Origin: Minisyncoccota bacterium
Lineage (GTDB): Bacteria; Patescibacteriota; Minisyncoccia; Phycocordibacterales; CAIJYI01
Reading direction: 5' to 3'
Assembly: GCA_023229825.1 (NCBI GenBank)
Contig: JALNYN010000002.1
Span: 17,789-81,788, forward strand
Length of the DNA stretch: 64,000 nt
Shown here: in pieces, positions 1-61,690 of the stretch
Position numbering within the stretch: the stretch's first letter is position 1
Layout of the letters: every line of letters begins with the position of its first letter
Position numbers and translations under genes: made by a program
Notes under the pieces: generated by a model
Database searches by the model: none
Seen by the model: the letters and a program-made list of their open reading frames with translations, nothing else
What the model was told of the DNA's origin: nothing

Positions 1-357
1 AAGCACTCGCTGTCCAACATTCCCGAACTCATCTTCAAAAACAAGTTTTAATCCATATGGATGAAATATAACCACTTCTGATTGACCGACAGTAAGTTTT
101 CTAATTTTTTTAAGCGGAATATCCTTTCCATTCAGAAACGAAGCTTTCCCTTTCAGTTTGTCATCTTGAATAAGAAAGTATGTTCCCTTTCTTTCAAGAA
201 AATAAAGAGTGCCACAAACTATCCAAAACCAAAAAGTTGATTGCAAAAATGGTAATTCGGAGAAGATAATATATTGTGCGAAGAAAAAATATATTATCCC
301 ATAACCGAAGAGTAGCTGTTTCTTACTGGGAGATAAATAATGATAGTTATTTTTCAT
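1..357 (-). CDS. Hypothetical 2-TM membrane protein, 5'-partial in window (runs off start); candidate immunity protein for the upstream RHS toxin
   Basis: Manual translation of minus strand from ATG at 355-357: MKNNYHYLSPSKKQLLFGYGIIYFFFAQYIIFSELPFLQSTFWFWIVCGTLYFLERKGTYFLIQDDKLKGKASF..., no stop to position 1. Two hydrophobic helices then a soluble part. Starts 8 nt after the TAA stop (366-368) of the RHS gene. Not in the supplied ORF track because it has no stop. Confidence 0.45.
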   Translation of the reverse strand, partial: MKNNYHYLSPSKKQLLFGYGIIYFFFAQYIIFSELPFLQSTFWFWIVCGTLYFLERKGTYFLIQDDKLKGKASFLNGKDIPLKKIRKLTVGQSEVVIFHPYGLKLVFEDEFGNVGQRVL

Positions 358-365
358 AAGGCGAT

Positions 366-3300
366 TTATTTCTTTTCGGTTTTTGTTGATAATGTCGCCA
401 TCATAGACGTCAGTACTTGAGTAAGTTGACCTAACTGTGCTCGAAGTTGCTCCGTTACAGATCGCGCACTTCCGAGAGATGCACCAATAGAAACGGGGGC
501 TCTACCAGCGGGATTTGGAATTTGTTGACCGATACGAGTACCTATAAATCCACCGAGAAAATCTCCAAACAGAGCAGTGGAATTAATTTGTCCAGTTGTT
601 TGATTTTTTGCATTCCCGTTTGCAAGGGAAACAGCAACATTTCCAAGTCCGCCAGTTGCGGCCGTTAACACCTTTGATCCTTGCGTTGTAATCGCTCCCG
701 CTACTGCAAGTCCATCAAAATATAGACCCGCTCCGACTACTCCGGCGGCAAGTAATGCTGCCGTTGTTGCATCTTTCGCGTACCGAATACCTGGGTACTC
801 TCCTCTTGCTTGAAGTATCGGGGCATCAGGATTTCTTCCTGAAACTATATCCTGATAGTTCTGATAGATATCACTTCCCCGATTCCATGTTACAGAGGTT
901 ACATAAGCTGCACCGGCGGCAATTATGAAAGGATTTCTTCCGTTCGGATCTTTGTTTGTTATTGGATTTCCGTTCGCGTAACTATAACTGTTTTGTGCCT
1001 GTGGATTAGTAAGTACGCTTCGTCCATCTCGAGTAAGACCTATCTCCCAAAATACGGGGTCTTGTGAGATGAACCGCCCACGCGCCCCCTCATAGTACCT
1101 CGCCTGCATATAATTGAGACCGCTCAGGCTGTCATTTTCCGTCCCCGTATACTTCCTTTTCTCTGCATAAGAACCTACTTTATCATCTACCCTCATTGTA
1201 CCATACGGATAGTAATCCACCGCTTCGACAAGGTTTCCATTCTGATCGGTCACCACATTCGTCCCGCCAAGATGGTCGGTATGGATATACCTCACCGTAC
1301 TCGTAGCGGTTGCTTCTTCTCCATTAGAAGAAATGAGCCGTATATCATCCCAATACACCGTCCCCGCACTCGCTCTCATTCCGGCAAATCCGGTAAGCGT
1401 CGTGCTTGCGGCCGATAGATCGGCAAGCGGAATGTCGACGTCATACCACGTATTTGCGGAAAGCGAACCGCCGGGAATGTAATCTGCGAGAGTTATCTGG
1501 GCGAGCCAGCCGTCCGGTCCGTACGAATCGATGTAAATGCCCGCATCGGCGTCGGGTACGCGGACAGAGAAGGAGAAATGAGTGGAAGTCGCGGTACTTA
1601 CTCCTGAACTATGAAGATAGAGCCCTGTCCATGAATCAGAGTGGGTCGCTTTGAGTGAATATGTTCCGATGCGTACAGGGCTTGAGTTGGAAGGATCGAG
1701 AGTTGTCCCCCAAGACCAGTTATCCCAACCGTTTATGGAATCGGAATAGATGGAAGAAACGGTGGTCGTGCTTTGATTTTGAGTATTTTTGGACTCTATG
1801 GTAGATACGAGAAGATCTCCGGCAAAGATGTGTTTGGTGATTGTGCCGGTAGTGCCTATTTGGTTAAAGTATTTATTCGGGAAATATGTCGTGGTACCAT
1901 CTTCTGTCAGTTTAACACGATTTCCGGAGTGATCGTAGGTGTAGGTTGAGGTGCTGGTAGCGCTGGTGCTTTGTATCAGTCGGTTTTTGTAGTCCCACGA
2001 ATAAGCGAGTGTTCCGTCCGAGGTGAGGTTGCCATTCGCATCATACGAAAGGGTTGTGGTGGATGTTCCGCTTGTCGTGGTCGTGGCGGGGGCGAATGTG
2101 GCGAGCGAATGCGCGGCGCAGTCGTAGGAAGCGGTCGTTTCTTTCATAGTATACGTACCGGAAGATGTGGCGAGTTTATAGCTTCCGATACCGGTGCCGC
2201 CGGATAAATTCATGAGAGCCGTCTGTCCTGCCGCAATAGAGAACGATCCGATATTGCCGTTCAAAGCGTCGATCACAAGCGCTCCCGACACAGTGGAGGT
2301 TGAAACGGAATGATCCATGACCCAATCCGTATTGGCGCCGGCATTCGAGTACGGCTGGCCGGTTTGCGCCACGCCGGTGAAGGTCGAGGCATAGGAGTCG
2401 ATGTTTGTCACGGAGCCGGTAAGCGTAATGACAACGTTGTGCGATCCCGATGCAGGATCGGGAAGATACCAAAGTTCGGAACAGCCGCTTATCGAATCGT
2501 AATCGTCGGCACGGACTTTGGTTAGCGATGCGCCGTTATAGGTTACGCCCGAGACTACGCGGTTTCCGGGGGTGCCCGGCTCATAGATCGATGTTCCCAC
2601 CACGAGCATTCTGTTATTTCCGCTTCCGGTCGTATGGCTGAAAGTAACCGAGCTCACTCCTTGAGATGAATCTGTCGAAGTCGCCTCGAAAGCGATCGTT
2701 TCGGTGCTGGTGGTTGCCGGTTTGAATGATGCCGTGAGCATGGACCAGTCTTGGCTTGCTGACCCGGTATAGATATCGGTGTAATTTCCGGTTGTGGTCG
2801 CGATACCATAACTTGCGGCGGCGAGGGTTGAACCGGTGAAGTCTTTAAAGAGCGAGGTTTTTGAAGTGGTGGCATTTGCGGTGGAGAAACGCGAAAGGGT
2901 TGAAACCACAATGTCGTTTACGTTCGGAACAGAGAGCGTGGTGCTCGGGTTTCCATTCGTACCGGTGGCGGAAGCGATGGCATCGGGCGAGGTTGCCGCG
3001 GCGTTCGTAAAGGAACTGGCGGAGAGTTTTATCGCATCGGTATCGCCCGTTATATTGACGGACATCGTTTTTGCGCCGGTGGTGGTGGCAAAAAGATACC
3101 AGATCTCCGATGACATCCCCATCATTCTCGTTGAACTTGCTTTTGTGAACGCGCCGCCGTTCCATGTGGCGGAAGATATTGAGCCGGTGCCGGCAACATC
3201 CTGCCAGATGTCAGCAGTAAGGATAATGATCGGATTTGTTCCCGTTACGGTATGCATCCAGGTTTTTGTAGTGGAGCCGCTCCAGCCATTCGATATGCTT

Positions 3301-6300
3301 GTCGTGGTCGAATCGAGCGCAGGGGTGGAAGCGGAAACACTTCCATCTGATCCGTTCGCTGTTATCGAAGTCACCGCATGCGGATTCGCGTAGTTGGTGC
3401 CGTCATACGCATATACTCCCGCTAAAGTTGAAGACGAGATGTTTCCAATGGCATTGTAAGTGAAGGTTTGACTAAAAGGCGTGGAGCTCGCCATCGTCGT
3501 CGAAGCGGTAAGCAAACGATTCAGATCGTCATAAGTGTAGTTGATGGTTTTTGCTAATCCTGTATTAGCGGAAGCATCTGCGATCTGTGTGATGTTCGCG
3601 TTTTCGTCGTAGGAGTAGGAGATATTTTGAATAGTGCCGTTTGATGTATTTTTATTATTTAAGCGATATAAATGATCCTCGTCATACGTATTTGTCGTTA
3701 CAACTCCGTTCGTATAATTTATAACCGTCGGCTGACCTGTCGGCGAATAATCAAAGTTCGATACTACATTACTGAACGATCCTCCGTTTTCTTTTTCTTC
3801 GACTTTTTCAATGAGATTTGCGGCATTGTAGGTGTATTTTATTTGAGAACCGTCGGGATGCGTGATGAATGTTTGATTGCCTTGTCGGTCGTAGTCGTAA
3901 GCGGTCGCGTATGGCGTTCCGGAAATGGTCGATGTCGCGATCTTGGTTTGTCCGATCGGCGTGTACTCATAAGATATGAGGGTTGCGGTTGAACTCGCAG
4001 TACAAAGACGCGTTTTTCCGTTCGTACAGTTGTCGTAGGTGTAGGTTGTTTCCGTACCTGATTGACCCATGTAATCTTCCGTTGATGGGCGATTAAGCTC
4101 GTCAAAAGTGTAATTCACGGTCTGACTCTTCGGATCAACGGACTGTGTTTGATTATTGGCGTCATCATACGCATAGGTCCATGTTCCATAGGTGCCGTCG
4201 CCGGAAGCGTGGAGGTCTTCGGCGGTTGTGCGTCGTCCGAGTTTGTCGTAGGTGAAATTGCGGATATTTGAAAGCGCGTCGGTAATTTTTGTGAGGTTTC
4301 CCAACAAATTATATTCGTAATTCGTGGTATACGTGTCGCCGCTGTTTTTTTCTTCCACCTTCACGAGATTTCCGTACGCGTCTTTGGTGAGTATTTTTTG
4401 TTTTCCGCGCGCATCTGTGGTAGTAACTTTCCAGTCATCGTAGGCGTTGGTTGTACTACCAACCGCGTTTAATATTTCCGTTACGCGTCCGAGCGGGTCA
4501 TAGGTATATGTTGCGTACAAATTAGTTTCTGCTGTGGCACTCGTTCTCGCAGTACTCGAAGCGAAATATGGGAGCGATTCTTTTTCTATCAAGCCGCGAT
4601 CATTGAACGACACATCTCTTACTGCATACGTATTACTCCCTTCCGATTGCGAACGGATTTGTATCGTTCTACCAAGGCCGTCTTTATAGACGTAAACAGT
4701 ATTCGTTAAGGATGGATTGAGATAATTTGTTTTTTGTACTGCAACCTCAAGTGGCGTATCGGTATAGGTATACGCTGATTTGGTTACGAGTGTTCTGGGA
4801 TTTGTTTGATCGGGCTGTTTTTCCGCGACGACGCGATCTATGCCGTCATACTCAACGGCAAAAACTAGTCCGTTTTCATCGGTCGTGGTCGCAACTTTTC
4901 CGGATGAATAATCGTAAAGGAAATTTTGTGTTTGTCCGAGCGAGTTAGTGGATGTGGCAACAAAAAGATCATACGTGTCATACGAATAGTTCGTCGCATT
5001 TCCTCGCGGGTCTGCCTGTTGTGTGACGAGCCCATAGGTTCCGTCGTAAACTTTGGTAGTGCTAGCATACGCACTACCTGAAATAAGTTTTTCTTCTTTG
5101 GTCGAGTTTCCCGCCGAGGCATAACCGAAGGAAAGTCCGTCGTAATACCATTTCGTATCTTTGACGGTATTGTCGGATTGATCGGTTACCAACTGGCGCG
5201 ACGGCAAAGAAATTACGCTATTAGTGGAACTGGCCGCATAACTGTAGGCGTAGGTGGCCTTATCAGTACCAGTATCGGTAAATGATCCGTCATTGCTTCC
5301 ACTTACTTCGCCCCATAATACTTTCTGAGAAAGGTTTCCGGTGCTGTCGTTATGGGAATACGCTTCGGCTTTATCCTTGTGTGTTCCATTCCCATCAAAA
5401 TCTTCTTCGGTCGATTGGACGAGTTTTACAAAAGTAGAGCTTGCAGTAATGCTGTATTTGTCCCACTTGTTGACGGTCAGCGAATAGAGATTATTGGCGT
5501 CGTCATATTTTTCAACACGATAGGGTTTGTTTATTTTTGAAATGTGATCGTTGTATTCGCCGTTCGTTGAGTCGGATGTGTTGCCTTGGTGATAATAGGT
5601 TTTTGTAACATTTCCTTCTTCATCGGTTTTGGTTATTTTCGCGAATCCTGCAAATTTTTTGTCGAGCGGATCGGAATGGTAATATACTCCGTCGGAATAG
5701 AGATAGGTTGTCGTCGAAACCGTTCCTCCAAAACCCGCATCCGTTGCAATTCCTTTTACAACTGTGAAATTATATTGCAAATTCGGATTCGGTTGTGAAT
5801 CGTCGTCGGCAAGCTCGGCGCTATTCGCATATTCGACCGTCGTTACCGCCCCTTGTTCTCCAGTAATGCGATTCAAGAGATCGGCTTTTTCTCCATTTTT
5901 GATCCAAACATAATGATTTTGATAATCATTCCTTATTACATCAGGAAGACCATCACCATTGACGTCTTCGACGTTTACCCCAAGGTCTTTAAAAATGTTC
6001 CCTCCTTGGTATTCCATTACATCTGTAGGAAAAGTCGACGATGCTTCCACCCAACTCGAACCGGTATTAATATAAACATCGCGCCCATCCGCACTACCGA
6101 CAAAGTCAGTAAATCCATCACCATTAACATCAGCAAATCGGTAACCCGTATCCCACCCAATTCCATCTAAAAAAATTGTAGGAGGTACAAATGATGGAGT
6201 TTCTTGCCAGCCGTGTCCTATATTTAAATATCCAATATGCTTTGGTAAATACGCGCCACCGATATAATCTCGAGACACCAACACGTCCGCAAGTCCATCA

Positions 6301-8105
6301 TTATTCAAATCCACAATACGCACCCCCGCATCATTTCCACCAGAAACAACTTCCGTCGGAAACGTCCACGAAGTATCCTGAACAAACTGACTTCCGTTAT
6401 TTATATATGTCCCATCATCTCCCGTAATGTCAGTTAAACCGTCTCCATTAACATCCACAAGGCGCACACCACGATCGATTGATGAAAATCCGTTTGTGTT
6501 CACAAAATATACGGGAGGCGTCCAGTTGTTCGTGGCGGACCAGCCGCTTGCGCTTCCCAAATAGACAGCTTTATATGAAGCTCCTTGCCATCTCGATACT
6601 ATTTCATCAACATATCCATCGCCGTTCAGGTCGACAAAACGTAGTCCTGAATCATAAGGTTGCATAAATAATTCCGGTGAATCATATCCCGTTGTAGTCG
6701 CCCATGTCAATCCGGTATTCTCATGTTCGTAATAGACGGGATACAGACCTCCCCAGCTCCAGTTGAGATCAGGAAGGCTGTCTCCATTGAAATCAAGTAC
6801 TCTTCCACCGCCGTCTCCTCCTGTTGGTCCGGTAAAATAATGACCACCGGGCAATCGCCATTTATTCGGATCGGTATTTTCGGTCCAACCTTCCGTACTA
6901 GTGGAATATCCGAACTCGACGGCGGGAAGCGTCGTTGTACCGAGACTGCTGTCCCAGCCCGATTCTTCGGCGGAAACAAGAAGCGAGCGCAGTCCGCTGT
7001 TGCCTGCGTCATATGACAATACGTATCTATGTGTAACTTCTCCGTTCGTTTTGATACGAATTTCTTTTATTTGCTTTTTTGTGGCGACAGAAAAGCCTGA
7101 AACTGAAGAAGTTGCTACATCATTGCGATCTTCCCGTAAAAATTCAACAAGAAAAATACCGGAAAGGCTCGGATTATTGGTATATGAAATGGAAGAAGGA
7201 TAGATCTGTCCTGCGTCTTTATAATATGAATAATCTACCGAGTTGCCGTTGGTATCGCGAACTTGTTCGAGCATCCATTTATATATTTGCGAACCATCAG
7301 ACGGATTATCTTGTCTTGTTGAAGTGGAATAGCCGAGCGAGTATGTATTGCCGGACTTTGTTGTAATAAGCCACGCGTTATTCGTCAAAAGATATGAATT
7401 AAAATTTCCATTTTCAACTTTTGCGCGGTAGGTACTCGTTGATGTTTGTACCAGTTCACCATCCAAGCTGGAAGTAAAATAATTTTGACCGAACATTTTA
7501 TCCGTACCGGTCTTATTCATGCGTTCTATGTAAGGAATATTATGGGACCATCCGTATCCAAAGATCGAATTTTCTTTACTTTGGCTATTGTACCGCAGTG
7601 CGAGGCCTGGTTCCATTCCGTTTCTTCCGGGAGGAACTTTGATCGGGTATTCGTAAACGAGAGCACCGGTGAGCTCATCGGTTTTTATATTTTTTCCATT
7701 TACAACATTCTCAAGCGGTCTTGGACCGCCTTCATCCCCAGTAAGTGTCGACATCGATTCCGACTCTGTGGGGGTTTCTTCCTGTGACAAAGGCGTATCT
7801 ACTGCAGGCTCTATTGAGTCTTCAGAAGGAGAAACCACTTCTTCGGAAGTTTCAAGCGCCGGACCCTCGACAATCGGGGTTATTTCACTACTTCCCGGCA
7901 AAGCATCACCGGAACCCAAAGAGTCAATTGCTTCTTCTAAATTGAGCGACGCAACCGGCTCTGCGGGCGTAATTGCTTCCGAAGAAGTATTGGTTATCTC
8001 CGGAGCACTTATCGATTCTTCCGCAAAAACTTGGGACAGCGGAAAACTTAGGGTGATATTAATAATAGTTACGACGCTTACAAAAACTTTTTTTATACGG
8101 AACAT
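366..8105 (-). CDS. Giant secreted RHS/YD-repeat polymorphic toxin (TcB/TcC-like fusion): signal peptide, acidic linker, SpvB/TcdB N-terminal domain, FG-GAP beta-propeller repeats, YD repeats with inserted beta-sandwich domains, RHS core, variable Gly/Ala-rich C-terminal toxin domain
   Basis: Signal peptide MFRIKKVFVSVVTIINITLSFPLSQVFA. SpvB-type motif: YEYPIKVPPGRNGMEPGLALRYNSQSKENSIFGYGWSHNIPYIER. Six VDxNGDGxxD (FG-GAP) repeats. Many YD repeats (YTYDPLGRVTEI, FTYDKLGRRTT, YTYDHSGNRVKL). RHS core RYIHTDHLGGTNVVTDQNGNLVEAVDYYPYGT...RYYEGARGRFISQDPV. About 250 aa follow the core with glycine-zipper-like stretches (AAGVVGAGLYFDGLAVAGAI, GGLGNVAVSLANG). An internal duplicated domain pair (two WYL-containing ~150-aa segments) lies inside the repeat shell. 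Confidence 0.9.
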   Translation of the reverse strand: MFRIKKVFVSVVTIINITLSFPLSQVFAEESISAPEITNTSSEAITPAEPVASLNLEEAIDSLGSGDALPGSSEITPIVEGPALETSEEVVSPSEDSIEPAVDTPLSQEETPTESESMSTLTGDEGGPRPLENVVNGKNIKTDELTGALVYEYPIKVPPGRNGMEPGLALRYNSQSKENSIFGYGWSHNIPYIERMNKTGTDKMFGQNYFTSSLDGELVQTSTSTYRAKVENGNFNSYLLTNNAWLITTKSGNTYSLGYSTSTRQDNPSDGSQIYKWMLEQVRDTNGNSVDYSYYKDAGQIYPSSISYTNNPSLSGIFLVEFLREDRNDVATSSVSGFSVATKKQIKEIRIKTNGEVTHRYVLSYDAGNSGLRSLLVSAEESGWDSSLGTTTLPAVEFGYSTSTEGWTENTDPNKWRLPGGHYFTGPTGGDGGGRVLDFNGDSLPDLNWSWGGLYPVYYEHENTGLTWATTTGYDSPELFMQPYDSGLRFVDLNGDGYVDEIVSRWQGASYKAVYLGSASGWSATNNWTPPVYFVNTNGFSSIDRGVRLVDVNGDGLTDITGDDGTYINNGSQFVQDTSWTFPTEVVSGGNDAGVRIVDLNNDGLADVLVSRDYIGGAYLPKHIGYLNIGHGWQETPSFVPPTIFLDGIGWDTGYRFADVNGDGFTDFVGSADGRDVYINTGSSWVEASSTFPTDVMEYQGGNIFKDLGVNVEDVNGDGLPDVIRNDYQNHYVWIKNGEKADLLNRITGEQGAVTTVEYANSAELADDDSQPNPNLQYNFTVVKGIATDAGFGGTVSTTTYLYSDGVYYHSDPLDKKFAGFAKITKTDEEGNVTKTYYHQGNTSDSTNGEYNDHISKINKPYRVEKYDDANNLYSLTVNKWDKYSITASSTFVKLVQSTEEDFDGNGTHKDKAEAYSHNDSTGNLSQKVLWGEVSGSNDGSFTDTGTDKATYAYSYAASSTNSVISLPSRQLVTDQSDNTVKDTKWYYDGLSFGYASAGNSTKEEKLISGSAYASTTKVYDGTYGLVTQQADPRGNATNYSYDTYDLFVATSTNSLGQTQNFLYDYSSGKVATTTDENGLVFAVEYDGIDRVVAEKQPDQTNPRTLVTKSAYTYTDTPLEVAVQKTNYLNPSLTNTVYVYKDGLGRTIQIRSQSEGSNTYAVRDVSFNDRGLIEKESLPYFASSTARTSATAETNLYATYTYDPLGRVTEILNAVGSTTNAYDDWKVTTTDARGKQKILTKDAYGNLVKVEEKNSGDTYTTNYEYNLLGNLTKITDALSNIRNFTYDKLGRRTTAEDLHASGDGTYGTWTYAYDDANNQTQSVDPKSQTVNYTFDELNRPSTEDYMGQSGTETTYTYDNCTNGKTRLCTASSTATLISYEYTPIGQTKIATSTISGTPYATAYDYDRQGNQTFITHPDGSQIKYTYNAANLIEKVEEKENGGSFSNVVSNFDYSPTGQPTVINYTNGVVTTNTYDEDHLYRLNNKNTSNGTIQNISYSYDENANITQIADASANTGLAKTINYTYDDLNRLLTASTTMASSTPFSQTFTYNAIGNISSSTLAGVYAYDGTNYANPHAVTSITANGSDGSVSASTPALDSTTTSISNGWSGSTTKTWMHTVTGTNPIIILTADIWQDVAGTGSISSATWNGGAFTKASSTRMMGMSSEIWYLFATTTGAKTMSVNITGDTDAIKLSASSFTNAAATSPDAIASATGTNGNPSTTLSVPNVNDIVVSTLSRFSTANATTSKTSLFKDFTGSTLAAASYGIATTTGNYTDIYTGSASQDWSMLTASFKPATTSTETIAFEATSTDSSQGVSSVTFSHTTGSGNNRMLVVGTSIYEPGTPGNRVVSGVTYNGASLTKVRADDYDSISGCSELWYLPDPASGSHNVVITLTGSVTNIDSYASTFTGVAQTGQPYSNAGANTDWVMDHSVSTSTVSGALVIDALNGNIGSFSIAAGQTALMNLSGGTGIGSYKLATSSGTYTMKETTASYDCAAHSLATFAPATTTTSGTSTTTLSYDANGNLTSDGTLAYSWDYKNRLIQSTSATSTSTYTYDHSGNRVKLTEDGTTTYFPNKYFNQIGTTGTITKHIFAGDLLVSTIESKNTQNQSTTTVSSIYSDSINGWDNWSWGTTLDPSNSSPVRIGTYSLKATHSDSWTGLYLHSSGVSTATSTHFSFSVRVPDADAGIYIDSYGPDGWLAQITLADYIPGGSLSANTWYDVDIPLADLSAASTTLTGFAGMRASAGTVYWDDIRLISSNGEEATATSTVRYIHTDHLGGTNVVTDQNGNLVEAVDYYPYGTMRVDDKVGSYAEKRKYTGTENDSLSGLNYMQARYYEGARGRFISQDPVFWEIGLTRDGRSVLTNPQAQNSYSYANGNPITNKDPNGRNPFIIAAGAAYVTSVTWNRGSDIYQNYQDIVSGRNPDAPILQARGEYPGIRYAKDATTAALLAAGVVGAGLYFDGLAVAGAITTQGSKVLTAATGGLGNVAVSLANGNAKNQTTGQINSTALFGDFLGGFIGTRIGQQIPNPAGRAPVSIGASLGSARSVTEQLRAQLGQLTQVLTSMMATLSTKTEKK

Positions 8106-8343
8106 ATAAAAACAAAAAAGGTTGATAAAAAATACTCAAATTAAAAAAATATTGCAATGATATCATTATCATAACAGAGAGCAGATAAAATCCTGATAAA
8201 GTCTCATAGGGAGATTTCATTATTATTTGTGGCTCTATTTTTGCTTTTTTTAATTTTTTTTATATTTTTTATGAAGTTATCCACAGGTACTTTTTGACAG
8301 TATTTTTAAACAAAAATTATTCGGGATAACATCTAGTCGACAA

Positions 8344-8457: not shown

Positions 8458-8715
8458 TTACCGTATGTCTTTAACGGTCTTTTCCTTTAATATATTGTTT
8501 ATTTTTTCAAGTATTCCGCGTTTGTTCATATACACCTCGTTTTTTACAGCGGAAGGAACTAAAAGAAACAAAACTCCATCTTTTACCTCCATTTCCTGTT
8601 TATCTATCTTTATACCGACCGCCTCAAAGATCGCGGGCTGTGCCGCTTCTTTTACGGTATCTCCCGGCGGTTCGATCCGTTTGAATTTTTCGAGATAAGA
8701 GGAGATGTTGAACAT
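8458..8715 (-). CDS. Small DUF721/DciA-like protein downstream of dnaN
   Basis: 85 aa. The position after dnaN on the same strand is typical of the dnaA-dnaN-DUF721 arrangement. Sequence ...VKDGVLFLLVPSAVKNEVYMNKRGILEKIN... Family assignment is from memory of context, not a search. Confidence 0.5.
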   Translation of the reverse strand: MFNISSYLEKFKRIEPPGDTVKEAAQPAIFEAVGIKIDKQEMEVKDGVLFLLVPSAVKNEVYMNKRGILEKINNILKEKTVKDIR

Positions 8716-8814
8716 TCGAAGTTATAAAGTTTATCAAGTTCATCAAGTTTATAAAGTCCACCGATCGCCGTACGTACTTGATAAACTTGATGAACTTTAT
8801 AACTTGATAAACTA

Positions 8815-9918
8815 TTATGTCGTGAGAGGCATCACCAAGTACATAAATGACTGATCCGATACCCCGCGTATCACCAGAGGCCTTCCCTCGCCTGAGAAAC
8901 GGAAAGTGATGCTGTCTTGCTTAAGTGATTGAAAACAATCGATAAGATATTTCTGATTAAAACCGCACGAGATATTTTTTCCAGACAAAGAAGCGTCTAC
9001 AACGGTCATATTCTCGCCGGCTGTGGAATTTTTTGATTCGGTGATAAATTTCTTTCCGGAAACATCGACGGAAACATCGACCCGATTGAATTTGTCGGAA
9101 AACAGATTGGTTACCTTGAGTGCGTTCATGATATCCTGCTTTAGAACAGTCGCTTCCGTCGCATAATCTTTAGGGATTATTTGCTGATAATCGGGAAAAA
9201 TACCGTCAACGATCCGAGAGGTCACGTAAATATCTTTATCGGCAAGAGAAAAAGATATCTGATTCTTGCTCACATTGATATTCACACTTCCGGTTACTCC
9301 ATCAAATACGCGAAGTATTTCCACGATATTTTTTTGAGGTATCAATACGTGTTTGAATGAGGTTTTTTCTTTAAGGAACACTTTCTTTTCCGCCAGACGG
9401 AAAGAATCGGTCGCGGCAAAAATGATATTTTCCCCCTCGGAATAGATGCAAACGCTCGCTATCTCCGGCTTCATATCGGAAATGGATGCGCTATACCAAA
9501 CGCTTTTCACGCCGTCCACAAACTTATCCACCGGCATAGCAAAGGCATCGGTACCGGAAACGACGGGAAGCGTCGGAAAATCCTCGTGCGGAAGGCATTT
9601 AAGCACGGATCGCCCATTGGAAGACTTTAATACCATATTCTCAGAAGATGTTTCGAGCGAAACTTTTTGGTCATAGATCGAGGATAGAACGCCGGAAAGA
9701 AGATTACCCTGAATGACCAGCGTACCCTCCTCGGAAACCTGTGCGGGAATCTCCATTTCAATACCGACATCCAGATTGGTGGCGCGAAGAAGAAGTTTAT
9801 TGTTTTTTGCCGAGAAGAGTATTCCCCCAAGTACCGGAAGAGACAGATTTTTTCCGACCATCCTTTCGGCTAGTCCGACCGCATTTTTAAGTACGTCTTT
9901 TGAGCATTCTAGTTTCAT
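8815..9918 (-). CDS. dnaN: DNA polymerase III beta subunit (sliding clamp)
   Basis: 367 aa, MKLECSKDVLKNAVGLAERMVGKNLSLPVLGGILF... is a typical DnaN N-terminus with a three-domain length; sits directly downstream of dnaA. Confidence 0.9.
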   Translation of the reverse strand: MKLECSKDVLKNAVGLAERMVGKNLSLPVLGGILFSAKNNKLLLRATNLDVGIEMEIPAQVSEEGTLVIQGNLLSGVLSSIYDQKVSLETSSENMVLKSSNGRSVLKCLPHEDFPTLPVVSGTDAFAMPVDKFVDGVKSVWYSASISDMKPEIASVCIYSEGENIIFAATDSFRLAEKKVFLKEKTSFKHVLIPQKNIVEILRVFDGVTGSVNINVSKNQISFSLADKDIYVTSRIVDGIFPDYQQIIPKDYATEATVLKQDIMNALKVTNLFSDKFNRVDVSVDVSGKKFITESKNSTAGENMTVVDASLSGKNISCGFNQKYLIDCFQSLKQDSITFRFSGEGRPLVIRGVSDQSFMYLVMPLTT

Positions 9919-9989: not shown

Positions 9990-10165
9990 TGTTGATAAGT
10001 GGATAAACCGATTATATCCTTATTTGAATTGGTAATTTAGATTTCGCTCTGTGGATATTCGGCGCATTGCGTATTGGATATAAATGAACAACTTTCGCTT
10101 TTATTTTTTTATTCGATTTTTTCCACAACGATATTAACTTTTTTCCACAGGGTTATACACAACAC
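9990..10165. promoter_or_regulatory. oriC: DnaA-box cluster in the dnaN-dnaA intergenic region (candidate oriC core)
   Basis: Five 9-mers within 1 mismatch of TTATCCACA: agtggataa 9998-10006, tgtggatat 10050-10058, ttttccaca 10117-10125, ttttccaca 10141-10149, ttatacaca 10153-10161. Followed (10170-10245) by A-rich heptamer arrays (AAAAGTn) on both strands. Confidence 0.7.
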
Positions 10166-10238: not shown

Positions 10239-11588
10239 TTACAATAGCGCCCGTATCTGTGACAGCTCCTCGACTAACACATCATCGTCTTTGATCGAGC
10301 TTTTTATTTTATCGCACGAATGTATTACGGTCGTATGGTCTCTTCCTCCGAATTTTTCTCCGATCGTCGGATAAGAAACAGTGAAGTCCTCGCGAAGAAG
10401 ATACATGGCTATCTGACGGGGTTTTACGATCTCTTTCCTCCTTGTTTTTTCATAGATCGCTGATTCGTCGATATGGTAGAATTCAGAAACGACCTTAATG
10501 ACATCCTTAATTGAAGCCGTCTTTTTGGGTATTATATTGTTTTTTATCAGAAGTTTGATCTCGGTTTGCTGGAGTTCCCTGTTTTTGAGCCTGGCTTGGC
10601 ATATAATGGAATTGATAATACCTTCCAGTTCCCGAATACTGCACTCGAGCGATTCGGCAATGAATTTTACGCTGTCATCGTTGAGAGAAAAGTTACTCGA
10701 TTGGATCTTTCTTCTGATGATCGCCATTCTTGATTCGTATTCGGGTGTCGTGATGTCCACGATCATTCCGGCGCCGAAACGCGATTTAAGGCGATCTTCC
10801 AGTCCATGGATGTGGTTCGGATGGCGATCGGATGAAAAGATGATCTGTTTATTGTTTTCGTAAAGAATATTAAAAAGATGGAAAAGTTCTTCTTGAGTCT
10901 TTTCTTTTCCTGAGAGGAACTGAATATCATCCATGATAAAAACATCGTATTTTCGATATTTTTCTTTAAAATCATGTACTCGGTTGTTCTGAACGGAGTT
11001 GATGTAGTCCATCGAAAATTTTTCCGATGTGATGTAGTAGATCTTTTTACCGGATTTTTCCTCTTTAAGCTTGTTTCCCACCGCCTGCGCGATATGTGTT
11101 TTTCCAAGTCCCACTCCCCCATGGATAAAAAGCGGGTTGTAGGTTTGACCGGGGTGCTTTACCACTGCTTGCGTGGCGGCATAGGCCAATTCATTGAATG
11201 ATCCGATGACGAGCGTGTCAAACGTATATCTTGGATTCAGATTATCTTCTTTATTTATATACAGGTCGCTCAAAGGAAGTTCTTGCACATAAGGCTGTCC
11301 GGTTCGCGAAGGAGATGAATCCTGGCTTTTTTCTTTCATGGTCGGCGTGACGATCACATATTCGACGCCTCGGACGCCTTCGGAAATATTCCGGAGCGTC
11401 TTTAATATAAACTTATCGTATTTTGAATACAGCCATTCTTTTACAAATTCGTTCGGCAAACCGACGTATACGATCCCATTTTCGTGTTTAATGATCCGAG
11501 TGTTTTTGAACCACGTACTGAAGTTTGCTCGCGAAACAGTGAGCTCTACCTCCGCTAAGACGCTATCCCAAAGTTGCTTATTATCCAT
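10239..11588 (-). CDS. dnaA: Chromosomal replication initiator protein DnaA
   Basis: 449 aa. Walker A GVGLGKTHIAQAVGN, Walker B/sensor FIMDDIQFLSGKEKTQEELFHLFN, C-terminal DNA-binding helix IGEKFGGRDHTTVIHSCDKI. Confidence 0.95.
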   Translation of the reverse strand: MDNKQLWDSVLAEVELTVSRANFSTWFKNTRIIKHENGIVYVGLPNEFVKEWLYSKYDKFILKTLRNISEGVRGVEYVIVTPTMKEKSQDSSPSRTGQPYVQELPLSDLYINKEDNLNPRYTFDTLVIGSFNELAYAATQAVVKHPGQTYNPLFIHGGVGLGKTHIAQAVGNKLKEEKSGKKIYYITSEKFSMDYINSVQNNRVHDFKEKYRKYDVFIMDDIQFLSGKEKTQEELFHLFNILYENNKQIIFSSDRHPNHIHGLEDRLKSRFGAGMIVDITTPEYESRMAIIRRKIQSSNFSLNDDSVKFIAESLECSIRELEGIINSIICQARLKNRELQQTEIKLLIKNNIIPKKTASIKDVIKVVSEFYHIDESAIYEKTRRKEIVKPRQIAMYLLREDFTVSYPTIGEKFGGRDHTTVIHSCDKIKSSIKDDDVLVEELSQIRALL

Positions 11589-14314: not shown

Positions 14315-15061
14315 TTGTTATTCTTGCCATTTTCGCATACAATTAGCACTATGCAAACAATATTTCACAACGTATTTTACCTTCCCATGTACAATTTCCT
14401 TGTTTTTTTGGTGGATATTTTACCCGGAGGTAATATTGGACTTGCGGTAATTATTCTCACGATCATCATTAAATTGGCCCTTTTTCCGCTTTCTCAAAAA
14501 TCCATTACCACACAGGCTAAAATGCGCAAGATCGAGCCGGAAATGAAAAAAATAAAGGAAAAACATAAGGATCAAAAAGAACAGGCTCAAAAAATCATGG
14601 AATTATATAAAGAACATGATCTCAATCCTTTTTCCGGTTGCTTTCTTATGCTGCTGCAGCTGCCCGTCATATTCGCGCTTTATTACGTTTTTCTTCAAGG
14701 GTTTAAATTTGATACCGCCTCACTGTATTCTTTCGTTACATTACCCGAAACGATAAATTCTCAATTCTTGGGGATCGATCTTTTTGGAAAAAGCGTTATT
14801 CTTGCTCTCATTGCCGGAGCCTCGCAGTATTATCAGCTTCGTTACGCGATGCCTGCCGTTACTCCGGTCGAGAAGGGTAAGAATCTCACTTTTCAGGAAG
14901 AATTCACGAGAAATATGACGCTTCAAATGAAGTATATTTTTCCCGTCATGGTATTTTTTATCGCCTATACGATATCATCAGCCATCGCGCTCTATTGGAT
15001 CGTCAGCAATCTCTTTGCTATCGCACAGGAATTGTACGTAAGAAAACAAGCTGCTAAATAA
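14315..15061 (+). CDS. yidC: Membrane protein insertase YidC/Oxa1 (short, Gram-positive/CPR type)
   Basis: IILTIIIKLALFPLSQKSITTQAKMRKIEPEMKKIKEKHKDQKEQAQKIMELYKEHDLNPFSGCFLMLLQLPVIFALY is the conserved YidC core; multiple TMs. The true start may be the internal Met at 14348. Terminator at 15069-15093 (atcgacc-acag-ggtcgat + T7). Confidence 0.9.
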   Translation: MLFLPFSHTISTMQTIFHNVFYLPMYNFLVFLVDILPGGNIGLAVIILTIIIKLALFPLSQKSITTQAKMRKIEPEMKKIKEKHKDQKEQAQKIMELYKEHDLNPFSGCFLMLLQLPVIFALYYVFLQGFKFDTASLYSFVTLPETINSQFLGIDLFGKSVILALIAGASQYYQLRYAMPAVTPVEKGKNLTFQEEFTRNMTLQMKYIFPVMVFFIAYTISSAIALYWIVSNLFAIAQELYVRKQAAK

Positions 15062-17342: not shown

Positions 17343-18287
17343 TTAACGCGTAAAACCGCACTTCGAGTTCGCTCCCCATTGACCCCAATGGTTGCCGCCA
17401 TTCGATATTTCTACCGCCTTGGCAATATTGATATCCGGGTCAGTCGCAGCTGAAACACACTTTTGATATTGAGATTGTTCTATTACTGTGCAATCGTAAT
17501 TCGGCGCGGAAAAAGGGTGTAAAGGGTCGGCTTTATGATACTTATAGAGACATATCAATCCTCCAAGATCGTGCATGGTAAGATTGACCTGAAAAAGACC
17601 GAATGAGAATGAATTTCCGTCTCGGCATCGGTCTACCCTGCTCGCCAGTGACGCGTTCCCTCCACTTTCCGCATTGCAGATGGATGATGCCTTTTCTGCG
17701 TTCGCTCCAAAATATTTTGTAAGCGCTTGAACACTGCAAGGCCCCGGAGTGGTGATAGGTTTGCATTGTCCGCTGCCTGCTCCACCGCCCCCGCCTCCTC
17801 CGCCTCCGCCACCACCAGAACCGCCGCCTCCTGTTCCGTTGCCATATGGGTTGTATACGATGGGCAGCGGTGGCGATGGTGGGAGTTTTGCGAGATCCAT
17901 TCCTGCGGTTAACAGATCAGGATTAAGGGTGAAGAGTAACAGATAGGAAAAAATTGCCACAAAAAGTCCGCCGATCGCTTCAAATATCTTTTTCTTTCCT
18001 TCAGATTTTGCTGATGGAACCGCCGCCATGACATACTGAATACCTCCTATAACTATCATTATGACAGCAAAAATGACTGACATGCCGACAAACAATACCA
18101 CCAGTCCTTTTATGTAGGTCGGGAAAGAAAGAGATCCCGCGTTTGAAATAGTCGGGATCTCTGCGAGTAATTCATACCCCCTTTGCGCGAATGTGCTTTT
18201 GGCGGATAATACAAAAGAATAAAGCAACACAAGGAGAGCCGGGAGGAAGATATAAACGATATTTTTTTTATTTTTCTGTGACATCAT
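17343..18287 (-). CDS. VirB2/TrbC-like pilin-family protein, paralog 3, fused via a poly-Gly linker to a lysozyme-like/transglycosylase-like C-terminal domain
   Basis: N-terminal module LLAEIPTISNAGSLSFPTYIKGLVVLFVGMSVIFAVIMIVIGGIQYVMAAVPSAKSEGKKKIFEAIGGLFVAIFSYLLLFTLNPDLL. Linker GGGGSGGGGGGGGGGGAGSG. C-terminal CNAESGGNASLASRVDRCRDGNSFSFGLFQVN resembles the ES...G(L/F)(M/F)Q catalytic signature of lytic transglycosylase/Rpf-like lysozyme folds; this is inference. Confidence 0.55.
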   Translation of the reverse strand: MMSQKNKKNIVYIFLPALLVLLYSFVLSAKSTFAQRGYELLAEIPTISNAGSLSFPTYIKGLVVLFVGMSVIFAVIMIVIGGIQYVMAAVPSAKSEGKKKIFEAIGGLFVAIFSYLLLFTLNPDLLTAGMDLAKLPPSPPLPIVYNPYGNGTGGGGSGGGGGGGGGGGGAGSGQCKPITTPGPCSVQALTKYFGANAEKASSICNAESGGNASLASRVDRCRDGNSFSFGLFQVNLTMHDLGGLICLYKYHKADPLHPFSAPNYDCTVIEQSQYQKCVSAATDPDINIAKAVEISNGGNHWGQWGANSKCGFTR

Positions 18288-21318: not shown

Positions 21319-23175
21319 TTATTGATTCGTCGACTGTTCGGCGTATTCGTTTCTTGATTTTTTGATCGCTAATACTTGCGATGGGTCGGAGGTGATGATC
21401 TGATCCTCTGTGTAAGACGAAATAACCTTAATGGCAACATGTTTTGACCCGGCAAAGAAGATACCCTCTCCTACTCCCGATTCAAGTAAAAGATATTTTT
21501 CCTCATCCGTAAGATTGAAGGTTTTTTGAACGATCTCAACGGAAGACGGGGATTGTTTCATAAGGAATTGCAGCGAGGAGTTCGTTATGATCGGCAAACC
21601 GTACGGACTTCGTAAAAAGTCTTCGACGTCCTGTGTGATCGTGGCGATCCCCAGAAAGTATTTTCTTCCTCTTTTTGCCAAACTAAAGAGAAAAGAAGCC
21701 GTATCTTCGGATTTCATCATCCACCATGCCTCGTCGATAACCATGAGCCGTTTGCGGAGCTCTTTGCGTATGGCACCCCAAATGTAGTGAGTAATGATAT
21801 ACATGGCCACCGGTTTCAGCTCATCTTCCATGTCTCGGACTGAAAAAACGATGAATTTCTTATTGATGTCGATATTCGTCGGCTTGTTGATGAAATTCGA
21901 CCATGTTCCCTTCGTGTATTTTGTGAGGCGCTGAACCAGTGATTCCGCACCATCCATTCCTGTGAGAACCAGCTCAAAGTCGCCCAGGATCGGCGGATCG
22001 ACCTCTGCAAAGTTGGATTCAGCGGTAATATCTTTCATTGCATAGGTTTCCGTAATGGCGCGATCGATGATCGCATCTTCTTCCGGAGTAAGGCCGCTGA
22101 ACATGATACGAAAGAGGCCCACTAGGTTGATGATATGAGACCGAAGAACATCGGACGCTGATTCATCTTCTCTTGGAACGGGAAGATCAAAAGGATTGAT
22201 GTGGTGCCCTGACGTAAGCGAAATATTGAAATATCTGCCGCCGGTAGCCTCCGCCATATATTCATATTCCCTTTCCGGATCGATAACAATGACTTCCGTA
22301 TCGAGCATGAGCGTTCGAAGTATTTCAAGCTTTGTTGTGTAGGATTTACCGGATCCGGACTTCGCAAAGATGATCGAGTTATAGTTTTCGAGAGAAAAAC
22401 GGTCGAATAGAACAAGACTGGAATTGTGTCGATTGACGCCATAGAGAATCCCCTTATCGGAGGTGAGGTCGAAAGAAACGAACGGAAACATGCTCGATAG
22501 AGGCGAAGAATTGAGCTTGGAATGGATCTGGAGGTCGTCTGTTCCGGTCGGTATAACACTATGAAAGCCGATCTCTTGCTGAAAGAGCGCCGGTTTTACA
22601 TAGACGAGCTTTGATTCCAAAAGAGATTTTATCTGAGATTCGAATTTATCCAATTCAGCGTCATCCGATCCATAAATGGTGACATACAGGCCGACATCGT
22701 AGAGTTTTTCCGTCGCCTGCTGCAGTTTGTCGCGCAATTCCTCAAGATCGCGAAAAGCAGTTTCAAGGATCGGATCGCGAACGAAACCTTTTTCTTCCCT
22801 CTCACTGATCTGGCTTTGTACTTCCGTCACCTTTTTCTGGAATTGTTTGAGTACGGTTCCGGTATCGATCGGATGCACGAAGATGGAAATATCGAAAACG
22901 CGGTCAAGATTGATGATCGGAGAGAACCAGCTGTCGGAAAGATAACGAGGATAAGAGATAACAAAGAATGTCCTTGCGATCTTTTCGCCGAGATTCAGCT
23001 GCTTCGGAGTGATCTTGAGCGCGGCCGGAGCGAGCACATCGCGCAGTTCGAGAACGCCGGATTCATATATTTCCTGCGGCAGGATCGGTACGATCTCTTG
23101 TTTATTCGATTTGTTTCCAAAAAATCCCATATAAAAAAGTAAAAAGTTAAAAGGTGAAAGTTTTTTCGTTGTCAT
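21319..23175 (-). CDS. virB4: VirB4/TrbE/CagE-family type IV secretion ATPase (short Gram-positive-like form)
   Basis: Walker A FAKSGSGKSYTT; Walker B LMVIDEAWWMM, where DEAW is the VirB4 signature; ~600 aa. The track ORF starts at a GTG (23199) inside the family-C repeat. First in-frame ATG (MTTKKLSPF) is at 23175 and a later Met (MGFFGNK) at 23130. Confidence 0.85.
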   Translation of the reverse strand: MTTKKLSPFNFLLFYMGFFGNKSNKQEIVPILPQEIYESGVLELRDVLAPAALKITPKQLNLGEKIARTFFVISYPRYLSDSWFSPIINLDRVFDISIFVHPIDTGTVLKQFQKKVTEVQSQISEREEKGFVRDPILETAFRDLEELRDKLQQATEKLYDVGLYVTIYGSDDAELDKFESQIKSLLESKLVYVKPALFQQEIGFHSVIPTGTDDLQIHSKLNSSPLSSMFPFVSFDLTSDKGILYGVNRHNSSLVLFDRFSLENYNSIIFAKSGSGKSYTTKLEILRTLMLDTEVIVIDPEREYEYMAEATGGRYFNISLTSGHHINPFDLPVPREDESASDVLRSHIINLVGLFRIMFSGLTPEEDAIIDRAITETYAMKDITAESNFAEVDPPILGDFELVLTGMDGAESLVQRLTKYTKGTWSNFINKPTNIDINKKFIVFSVRDMEDELKPVAMYIITHYIWGAIRKELRKRLMVIDEAWWMMKSEDTASFLFSLAKRGRKYFLGIATITQDVEDFLRSPYGLPIITNSSLQFLMKQSPSSVEIVQKTFNLTDEEKYLLLESGVGEGIFFAGSKHVAIKVISSYTEDQIITSDPSQVLAIKKSRNEYAEQSTNQ

Positions 23176-23248
23176 CCCGGGCAACGACCCGGGATCCACG
23201 TTGTTACTGTATTGGACGACGTGGATTCCGGATCAAGTCCGGAATGAC
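23167..23248. repeat. Family-C double-hairpin element, complete copy
   Basis: cgttgtcatcccgggcaacgacccgggatccacgttgt (stem atcccggg/cccgggat) + spacer + acgtggattccggatcaagtccggaatgacg (stem attccgg/ccggaat). Overlaps the annotated 5' end of virB4. Confidence 0.85.
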
Positions 23249-36300: not shown

Positions 36301-36373
36301 TCAAAAGAGGGCCGTTTTTGTGAAGAACGGCCTCTTTTTGCGGTTCATTTAATCCTTCTGTGTAGTCATGCAT
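33335..36373 (-). CDS. ATP-dependent DNA helicase UvrD/PcrA family, interrupted by an in-frame intein
   Basis: Motif I AGAGAGKTKTL, motif II DEYQDT, motif III region VVGDGDQ|CFPKN...(366 aa)...IPVHN|CVYSWRGANI, motif IV/V and a C-terminal UvrD_C region. Total 1012 aa versus the typical ~650-750. Confidence 0.9.
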   Translation of the reverse strand: MHDYTEGLNEPQKEAVLHKNGPLLIVAGAGAGKTKTLTHRIIQLIQSGVPAHQILAVTFTNKAAQEMRGRINTLLQKENIIGYGNEPFIGTFHSLGVYILRKENEALGLPKHFTILDQNDSRSLIKDAIKARNLDPKQFDPKKIQSIISRQKGECVSAETFYANSNTAFFPRIVAEVWLDYEKRTKKASAFDFDDLLLKTLLLLRENEAIREKYQEMWRYVHIDEYQDTNTVQYELSRLLAGKDRNICVVGDGDQCFPKNTRVSVKNGEKKIEDIKTGDEVKSAAGNGDVCLSKVTRVIEKKYDGDMIKITTKSGRIIKTTPEHIFFSRFSLQHNVYYVYLMYKRTKGFRVGMVKSARVPGNGNGDVKVGFLVRSNQEKADRMWVIRVCETKPEAILWENYYSFFYGIPTIVFHTIGRKLSLAQKQIDDLFGMIDTEKNAKRLFEETGLSFDFPHYTPQGTTQGNTENNRLNVRLTMFSDKRKSVLHPFGLSRVSINTTDKKLKEKLELAGFKTRKGKRDDWRLEIAKLDYGEAENIAQKILAINPKLILNRTALLTEKGRFNFFPAASLREKMETALIQNGKIITDEIQKIERVKYEGLVYDLDIAKTHNYIVNSIPVHNCVYSWRGANIRNIIHFEKDYPGSKIVLLEENYRSTQNILSAANSVIQKNKLRVPKNLFTKIPGGEQISLYEAYDENDEASFVAEKVRELVRKGVSYQNIAVLFRANYQSRALEEAMLSADIPYQVLGTKFFERKEVKDVLAYLRAAFNPESAFDLKRIINVPARGLGEVTLKKILAGQRDMLPAAAKTKVSDFFALLEKIRVIAAEKKPSDTVKYILKETGMEKGLSLGGEEEQERIENLYELVSLASKYDAYPPEEGIQKLLEDAALASDQDSLMHGKIDTPRVRLMTVHASKGLEFETVFITGLEDGLFPHRSFGESGDSQNHKEEERRLFYVAITRAKQRLFLTYASVRTVFGSRNMTVPSEFLNDIPEELVEIEERKGETRGRVVYI
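34511..35608 (-). mobile_element. Intein (366 aa) inserted in helicase motif III of the UvrD/PcrA gene
   Basis: N-terminal Cys (codon 35606-35608), block B TPEH, C-terminal VHN followed by +1 Cys (codon 34508-34510). Interior long enough for an endonuclease domain (KLELAGFKTRKGKRDD is LAGLIDADG-like but degenerate). Confidence 0.8.
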
Positions 36374-55904: not shown

Positions 55905-55932
55905 TTTAGATTGTCTTTTAAGGAAATTTAGT

Positions 55933-55951
55933 TATCCACAGTTATCCACAG
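55933..55951 (+). promoter_or_regulatory. Two tandem perfect consensus DnaA boxes (TTATCCACA x2, 10-bp spacing) outside oriC
   Basis: gTTATCCACAgTTATCCACAg at 55932-55952. A further perfect box (tgtggataa) is at 61477-61485. Confidence 0.6.
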
Positions 55952-61384: not shown

Positions 61385-61690
61385 TGTGGATGGACACTCT
61401 GTCCGGCGATAGAACTGATTTTGTAGCTGATTCCGTTCGTTTTCCCTTATACTTATACTAATCCCTTATACTTTTGTGTGGATAACTCAGGGGATATGTG
61501 TATAAAAGACATTGAAATTTGTCCTTCGCAAGCATTCATCTTTTGACCGATTGTCAATAAATGTGGCTAAAAATAACAATATTTGTTTCGGTCGTCAAGG
61601 AAAAAGTCCTTCATTATGAAGGAAATAAATCGACGTTTCACATGAAACGTCGATTTTGTTAATTTTTCTCAAAAGGAGTATTCTTTTGAT

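Follow-up and report, generated by a model that had tools for sequence, protein, structure and literature searches.

The systems closest to the locus considered here, a giant rhs gene and its small downstream neighbour at one end of a 64-kb stretch of Candidatus Paceibacterota DNA (the whole of this stretch is called the window below), are the effector Tse5, the TcB-TcC cocoons, the WapA-type toxins and a giant Saccharibacterium protein. Tse5 (PA2684) of Pseudomonas aeruginosa possesses a C-terminal plug in which two catalytic aspartates release the tip (PMC10684867), a small tip shown to act on membranes and a cognate immunity gene (Tsi5), and it therefore provides a precedent for a pore-forming Rhs tip. 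The YD shell of the window protein was aligned to it over aa 1227-1597 (phmmer, E 1.4e-13); release of the tip is predicted and membrane action proposed in our case, and a candidate immunity gene likewise follows. However, Tse5 is delivered by a type VI secretion system and carries a plug domain (DUF6531) at its N-terminus, whereas SpvB domain, propeller and lectin-like inserts are all missing from it, and the two tips share no detectable sequence similarity.

The TcB-TcC cocoons of toxin complexes (Tc), including YenB/YenC, TcdB2-TccC3 and the naturally occurring tcB-tcC fusion genes (PMC7861908), display the same succession of SpvB domain, propeller, RHS shell, core and hypervariable tip. 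Residues 357-771 of the window protein align with residues 338-736 of YenB, a TcB protein (phmmer against PDB sequences), and the PxxxxDxxG context described for autoproteolysis of TcC and Rhs proteins, in which P-1 is basic, is present in it as well (PMC7861908). In contrast to these cocoons, the window protein, which belongs to a Patescibacteria lineage, has its own signal peptide and three extra beta-domains in its shell; no TcA is encoded in the window, an immunity gene follows, and orphan arrays occur in relatives. The WapA-type toxins (Bacillus subtilis; Streptococcus suis, PMC12704120) resemble it in their Sec signal peptide, YD shell and polymorphic C-terminal toxin. They also have an adjacent immunity gene and no dedicated secretion system. 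WapA is not known to have an N-terminal half made of SpvB domain and propeller; wall-binding repeats take its place, and the tips known for WapA act as nucleases. Within the Patescibacteria, the rhizosphere Saccharibacterium 'T. rhizospherense' encodes an Rhs-type toxin of ~2500 aa that is predicted to be secreted and contains RHS/YD repeats and accessory domains of lectin type (PA14, galactose-binding), with an immunity gene as its neighbour (Starr et al. 2018, PMC6031116); it differs in these accessory domains and presumably in its tip, and was noted only in passing (PMC6031116).

Compared with these systems, the locus is best read as a Sec-exported Rhs polymorphic toxin of the TcB-TcC-fusion type with its cognate immunity gene, and we put the probability of the whole proposed mechanism at about 0.6. 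That the locus is a toxin-immunity module at all is very probable; it is regarded as a genuine one because the core is supported by hidden Markov models (HMMs), the tip varies among relatives and the downstream open reading frame (ORF) is kept in synteny. All parts of the module lie on the minus strand and are arranged as follows, in the direction of transcription:

8022..8105 (-), predicted Sec signal peptide, aa 1-28 (direct sequence reading)
7731..8021 (-), acidic Glu/Ser/Pro/Thr-rich low-complexity linker, aa 29-125 (composition)
6846..7688 (-), SpvB/TcB N-terminal domain, ~aa 140-420 (Pfam SpvB)
5886..6818 (-), FG-GAP beta-propeller, ~aa 430-740 (Pfam FG-GAP and FG-GAP_3, phmmer to YenB)
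3357..5768 (-), YD/RHS repeat shell, ~aa 780-1583, ending in …YANPHAVTSI (RHS_repeat, YD_repeat_2x)
2706..3323 (-), first copy of the beta-sandwich insert, aa 1595-1800
2076..2696 (-), second copy of the beta-sandwich insert, aa 1804-2010 (similarity to the first)
1794..2054 (-), final shell stretch with YD repeats, aa 2018-2104 (TLSYDANGNL … HIFAGDLLVSTIE)
1296..1793 (-), inserted module resembling a carbohydrate-binding module (CBM), aa 2105-2270, ~166 aa (tblastn)
936..1295 (-), Rhs-associated core, comprising the plug and predicted aspartyl autoprotease, aa 2271-2390 (TIGR03696, PF03527)
369..935 (-), toxin tip forming the C-terminus, aa 2391-2579 (189 aa), rich in Gly/Ala and helical by prediction
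1..357 (-), candidate immunity gene of 173 codons, cut by the window edge after codon 119 (ORF reading)

The rhs ORF (366..8105, -) starts with ATG, stops with TAA at 366-368 and encodes 2579 aa. Its product is recorded at NCBI for Candidatus Paceibacterota (MCK9351296.1, MFA6493432.1), where it already bears the names 'SpvB/TcaC N-terminal domain-containing protein' and 'RHS repeat-associated protein'. The signal peptide, read from the sequence (MFRIKKVFVSVVTIINITLSFPLSQVFA, followed by EE), shows a basic n-region, a hydrophobic core and a VFA cleavage-type motif. Export by it would take the protein out of a monoderm-type cell, and the acidic linker behind it (14 E and 16 S within the first 100 aa; a Pfam search of aa 29-125 returned no family) may space the protein from the surface. 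SpvB (PF03534) was matched at E 2.6e-17, with its top stretch at aa 146-231, and the propeller by four stretches of FG-GAP (E 5.8e-10) and FG-GAP_3 (E 4.9e-9). The shell was recognized by RHS_repeat (PF05593, E 1.5e-24) and YD_repeat_2x (TIGR01643, E 4e-11) and partially by NF041261 RHS_core, and it aligns with the shells of Tse5 (8cp6) and RhsA (7q97) in phmmer searches against the PDB. Its last stretch, aa 2018-2104, contains a YxYDxxGN motif at aa 2055 and is 53% identical to the uninterrupted equivalent in a relative (L003). By homology to YenB, Tse5 and RhsA, the SpvB domain, propeller and YD shell would close up into a cocoon. The initial annotation had described a secreted 2579-aa protein combining an SpvB domain, FG-GAP propeller, YD shell and RHS core, and the HMM and PDB-sequence matches agree with these domains.

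For the core, Rhs_assc_core (TIGR03696) was matched at aa 2298-2389 with E 1.1e-15 and 57.9 bits, against a cutoff of 32.5, and PF03527 at aa 2271-2304. The core ends in …NGNPITNKDPNGR followed by NPF, i.e., …NPITNKDPNGR before NPF, with aa 2390 as its last residue; the motif P-ITNK-D-PN-G-R is readable, and this end fits the PxxxxDxxG context with its basic P-1 residue. D2349 and D2386 are both present and correspond to the catalytic Asp pair, which in the Rhs core sits in a DPxG…DPxG motif (PMC10684867); the 37 aa between the two Asp are a longer spacing than the enterobacterial x18 (PMC10684867), and the first Asp motif reads DPVF here, not DPxG. Judged from this motif conservation, the core would plug the shell, and D2349 and D2386 would cut after ...DPNGR, leaving the tip free inside. 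Because the core runs to aa 2390, the tip measures 189 aa and not the ~250 aa first proposed, while its description as Gly/Ala-rich stands (A+G = 28%).

Evidence for cassette arrays and recombination comes from the loci of relatives, in which a variable tip on a conserved core, as expected by the initial annotation, was indeed found. Behind a core of 43-64% identity (L002-L004, L010, L011, L018, L019) stand tips unrelated to one another, among them HNH and colicin-DNase-like tips and several of unknown type, and a set of JGI fragments (P0018-P0025) has the same shell end with different tips. Two loci from one study's metagenomes (L002 and L004) hold three or four cassettes with unrelated tips and small ORFs after each; these fragments begin in the last shell or insert region, continue into the conserved core and then into the tip. 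In their third cassette, a tip 61% identical to ours is followed by a 173-aa ORF 56% identical to ours, the same pair of values being obtained across L002-L005. More distant pairs were met in P0005 (L018/L019; tip 51%, ORF ~25%) and P0007 (L017; tip 41-42%, ORF 27-29%). Thus, at four divergence levels, a homologue of the downstream ORF lies 3' of this tip family wherever the 3' neighbour of the tip is readable; tip and ORF are co-inherited, and the expected synteny holds.

Exchange of such cassettes is directly visible in the relatives. L003 (1809-8158) and L004 (4360-10722), two related metagenome haplotypes, share 99.3% identity starting with the first bases of the core of orphan 3, and upstream of this core L003 carries a full-length rhs gene, of which the 3' part is seen. 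The main gene in L003 appears to have recombined onto an orphan cassette at the conserved core, which looks like a tip displacement caught in the act. Tip and immunity genes would generally be swapped as cassettes in this way. In a Saccharibacteria relative (L010), small ORFs come after a 3117-aa gene, and so do orphan tips that contain HNH and colicin-DNase domains; a DUF2750 gene lies behind the final orphan tip. A ~660-kb scaffold (L020) contains a 3137-aa gene, an immunity gene and one orphan, and both loci show this same layout of the system. Separately, an IS200-type Y1 transposase was noted at the end of a relative's orphan Rhs array.

The small ORF downstream of the window gene begins with an ATG at 357, 8 nt past the rhs stop, and encodes two transmembrane (TM) segments, precisely as had been proposed. 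Its full length of 173 aa was read from an 8.6-kb contig identical to the window (L001, 8018-8539). All four full-length homologues retain the two strongly hydrophobic segments (~aa 15-33 and 35-54), and the remaining ~115 aa form a conserved soluble domain with a Lys-rich tail at its end. Hints of a pleckstrin homology (PH)-like fold in this domain are below threshold but mutually consistent, i.e., EbsA in three of five family members (best E 0.002), bPH_4 (0.06) and the PH-domain PDB chains of dynamin-2 and Bem3 (E 0.4-0.5); the PDB sequence profile search yielded nothing significant for the protein, and Pfam at E up to 10 nothing meaningful. The family is very rare, with three clusters among 5.8 billion proteins. 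Two metagenome-contig scans with the protein or its alignment, aimed at extending the locus past window position 1, found nothing. In the favoured reading, this two-TM protein would neutralise the tip in the membrane of the producer and its siblings. A homologue at L008 656-1156 (59% identity) has no tip upstream and is possibly an orphan immunity gene, as in orphan-immunity islands. It was also observed that, in the relative's orphan Rhs array, a 153-aa ORF and a 335-aa HATPase_c protein always come after the 173-aa immunity homologue (L002 6233-7701, L003 3361-4829).

What the tip does is less certain than the module itself. A word-indexed search with the tip was saturated by low-complexity words and gave one match; an exhaustive profile search of 1.84 billion representatives was used instead and returned 14 proteins at E <= 1e-3. 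Twelve of them were read, three being short tip-only fragments; in each of the nine with upstream sequence the match is C-terminal and directly follows an Rhs core ending in DPxG[KRQ]. Searches of Pfam (with the isolated tip, at E up to 10), NCBIfam and PDB sequences produced no relative. An AlphaFold2 model built from 11 sequences consists of five long helices (pLDDT 65, pTM 0.57) and is suggestive of a membrane-inserting helical toxin tip. Eight invariant tip positions were counted, of which four are Gly; F126, Q137, S153, E162 and Q167 are the non-Gly invariant residues named, and the conserved motifs are F..GF.GTRIGQQIPNP and TEQxRAQ. Two larger proteins match parts of the tip profile repeatedly, namely P0011 (2139 aa; 15 stretches at profile positions 1-44) and P0017 (1166 aa; 7 stretches at positions 36-83), and these repeats could reflect a reused tip sub-motif or shared low complexity. 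An ADP-ribosyltransferase-type R-S-E motif that we had read in the tip was rejected, as neither the composition nor the helical model fits it.

A pore-forming tip is favoured because the model is helical, the composition is rich in small residues, few catalytic candidates exist among the invariant positions and the partner is embedded in the membrane. The five-helix Gly/Ala-rich tip would most likely enter the cytoplasmic membrane of the target and dissipate its potential, as Tse5-CT does, and we give such action as a membrane-depolarising pore-former roughly even odds. Several observations weigh against it. The tip model is of moderate confidence, and Foldseek returned nothing significant for it (all E > 1, TM-score at most 0.27), hence no fold homology to a known pore-forming tip; no similarity to Tse5-CT or any known pore-former emerged from the sequence searches, the PDB included. 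No segment of the tip is clearly a TM helix, the Wimley-White octanol energies of the most hydrophobic segments ranging from about -0.6 to +4 kcal/mol; for the segment AALLAAGVVGAGLYFDGLAV the mean Kyte-Doolittle hydropathy is 1.75 and the octanol energies are near zero. The polar motifs RIGQQIPNP and TEQxRAQ could equally mark an enzymatic or binding site. The membrane-active tip that the initial annotation anticipated is plausible and has gained a helical, Gly/Ala-rich model and a membrane partner, but not a confident structure or a structural match.

Some of these observations also suit the main rival, according to which the module is as described, but the tip is an enzyme or binder of a new fold with an intracellular target, its Gly/Ala richness arising from the need to stay unfolded in the cocoon and then translocate, and the soluble PH-like domain of the immunity protein is what blocks the tip. 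The conserved polar motifs, with the invariant E162 in TEQxRAQ, the marginal Wimley-White hydrophobicity and the conserved soluble C-terminal domain of the immunity protein (~115 aa) would all suit it, and so would the facts that most characterised Rhs tips are enzymes and that neighbouring cassettes in relatives carry HNH or DNase tips. Against this, no catalytic family was matched in Pfam, NCBIfam or PDB sequences, His, Cys and Asp are all absent from the invariant tip positions, the predicted fold is one of long helical hairpins and there is no evident machinery for translocation. Membrane anchoring of the immunity protein is, moreover, more typical of membrane-acting toxins. We hold an enzymatic or binding tip to be rather unlikely.

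Returning to the favoured exported toxin with a membrane-acting tip, its target recognition may lie in the modules inserted in the shell. Two copies of ~206 aa sit between …YANPHAVTSI (aa ~1583) and TLSYDANGNL (aa 2018). They are 29% identical in pairwise BLASTP (E 6e-10), and the duplication was also recovered by local jackhmmer (domain E 2.8e-60), whereas a self-BLAST of the insert region with composition-based statistics and SEG off missed it. The AlphaFold2 model of the module (12 sequences) is all-beta, with 15 strands, pLDDT 92 and pTM 0.91. The initial annotation was thus right about a duplicated beta-sandwich pair but put the copies at ~150 aa. Pfam and PDB sequence searches gave no match for the module. 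Many metagenomic fragments of the 'RHS repeat-associated' kind have a single copy of it immediately ahead of the core, and it is also present in non-Rhs proteins, namely P0024, which has two copies and an N-terminus that we read as signal-peptide-like, and P0027.

The second kind of insert had been taken for a lectin/CBM-like segment of ~180 aa; at ~166 aa it is shorter, and its likeness was borne out by tblastn, which aligned it at 31-34% identity (E 1e-9 to 1e-13) with modules of proteins from unrelated phyla. One of these modules lies at the N-terminus of a glycoside hydrolase family 44 (GH44) enzyme in a Pyrinomonadaceae metagenome-assembled genome (MAG) (L013); the others, internal or N-terminal, belong to proteins of Verrucomicrobiota, Opitutus and an unclassified bacterium. 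The GH44 and Verrucomicrobiota proteins show weak MAM-domain Pfam matches. The term 'CBM-like' thus reflects homology to a module that accompanies the catalytic domain of a glycoside hydrolase, without a named CBM family; in Pfam at E up to 10, neither insert type alone matched anything meaningful. A comparison with L003 shows that both insertion sites lie towards the C-terminal end of the shell: in L003 the first site is empty, and the beta-sandwich modules occupy the second, where the window protein has its CBM-like module. Other patescibacterial SpvB-RHS proteins carry other inserts, Gly_rich_2 and Ig_Rha78A_N (L020, L010). Because L003, L010 and L020 have inserts too, the inserts recur among relatives and are not an oddity of one gene. 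Sitting in two loops of the shell, the beta-sandwich and CBM-like modules would probably bind glycans on the target surface, in which case they may stand in for the TcA-type receptor-binding subunit; the toxin may act on contact with the target cell.

Which cells are targeted is where another rival enters, in which the protein is chiefly a host-directed weapon or adhesin of an epibiont: the inserts would bind the host envelope and the tip would permeabilise the host membrane for nutrients, with immunity serving only against self-harm and competition among kin being secondary. The source is a Paceibacterota MAG, and Patescibacteria are described as colonising host bacteria and having reduced genomes (PMC13622651). 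The investment is large, 7.7 kb here and 9.4 kb, or ~1.4%, of the ~660-kb scaffold L020; the inserts are carbohydrate-binding-like, and genes resembling a type IV secretion system (T4SS) are nearby. However, the tight pairing of tip and immunity gene, the orphan arrays and the cassette swapping are the signature of competition among relatives, so that relatives are indicated as one target at least. We consider a primarily host-directed role somewhat less probable still than an enzymatic tip. A bolder variant, which we think a long shot, makes the tip family a new class of small helical membrane channel, loosely resembling four-helix pore proteins of the Tim17/OEP16 type. A Sec-exported, lectin-decorated Rhs cocoon would bring it to the membrane of the host bacterium, where it would act as a nutrient-harvesting pore through which metabolites leak and not as a means of killing, while the two-TM/PH-like protein would shield the epibiont.

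That the protein is the BC subunit of a true Tc (ABC) complex, its TcA translocator being encoded elsewhere in the genome, is very improbable. The TcB-TcC order of SpvB domain, propeller, RHS repeats and core, together with the YenB alignment, is what would be expected of such a subunit. On the other hand, no TcA-like or TcA-sized ORF was found in the 64-kb window or in the read flanks of L010 and L020, the protein has its own Sec signal peptide, and the immunity gene behind it, like the orphan arrays, is what antibacterial Rhs systems typically show; a TcA-dependent Tc toxin was accordingly rejected. Hardly credible, finally, is that the hydrophobic, helical C-terminus is the membrane anchor or assembly domain of an adhesin and the small ORF an unrelated membrane protein, because this region follows an intact autoprotease motif, is replaced in relatives by other tips at exactly the same junction, and occurs along with the small ORF as a promoter-less orphan cassette.

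Patescibacteria, also called the Candidate Phyla Radiation, represent a large share of bacterial diversity and have tiny genomes, and their cell-cell interactions are poorly understood. Here, a Paceibacterota lineage keeps a full Rhs polymorphic-toxin system, to which its relatives add orphan arrays and recombinational tip switching. This argues that attacking hosts or antagonising close relatives matters enough for so large a gene to be kept in a small genome. The type of system, the B-C fusions (PMC7861908) and a similar giant Saccharibacterium protein (PMC6031116) are already known; the rare tip family, the immunity family, the unclassified beta-sandwich module and the clear Rhs cassette dynamics in Patescibacteria are new. 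The helical tip family, the two-TM immunity family and the ~206-aa beta-sandwich domain are uncharacterised, tractable modules. The understanding of Rhs systems is unchanged, so the value is incremental.

As for the genomic context, the upstream neighbours of the rhs gene are a DciA-like ORF (8458-8715, -; 85 aa; Pfam DciA at E 2.5e-5, just above the cutoff), dnaN (8815-9918) and dnaA (10239-11588), in the local order dnaA-dnaN-dciA. The dnaA-dnaN spacer (9990-10161) contains a cluster of six DnaA-box-like sites that differ from the consensus at one position each, and a perfect DnaA box (8277-8285) lies upstream of the rhs gene; the DnaA-box-like motif is enriched across the window (41 matches vs 14 expected). 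The rhs gene thus probably adjoins the origin, as the initial annotation had stated, but in the flanks of L010 and L020 no dnaA or dnaN was found beside the related genes. The position is for this reason regarded as incidental, and a functional link to oriC was rejected. Farther from dnaA, two adjacent perfect DnaA boxes (55932-55950) and a small cluster (61477-61570) were noted, and a 22-nt tandem repeat (10110-10153) lies inside the dnaA-dnaN spacer. Between the dnaN stop and the dciA start there is an inverted repeat (8719-8748 / 8776-8805) of TTATCAAGT-like units, with 30-nt arms that are 93% complementary and a 27-nt loop, and this element (8719-8805) could be a terminator or a protein-binding site.

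The T4SS-like genes and yidC are situated 6-15 kb from the rhs gene (17343-18287, -; 21319-23199, -; 14315-15061, +), the former encoding a protein with T4SS_pilin and lysozyme-like SLT_3 matches as well as a P-loop ATPase of VirB4/TraG type. In their surroundings, several large ORFs, including 25640-28141 (833 aa), had no Pfam match. The largest other ORF of the window encodes a UvrD-family helicase of 1012 aa (33335-36373, -) that is interrupted by an intein (Intein_splicing/Hint matches, aa 254-621). A Fic/DOC-domain protein of 444 aa is encoded at 44449-45783 (-), adjoining an alpha-amylase-family gene (43030-44364).

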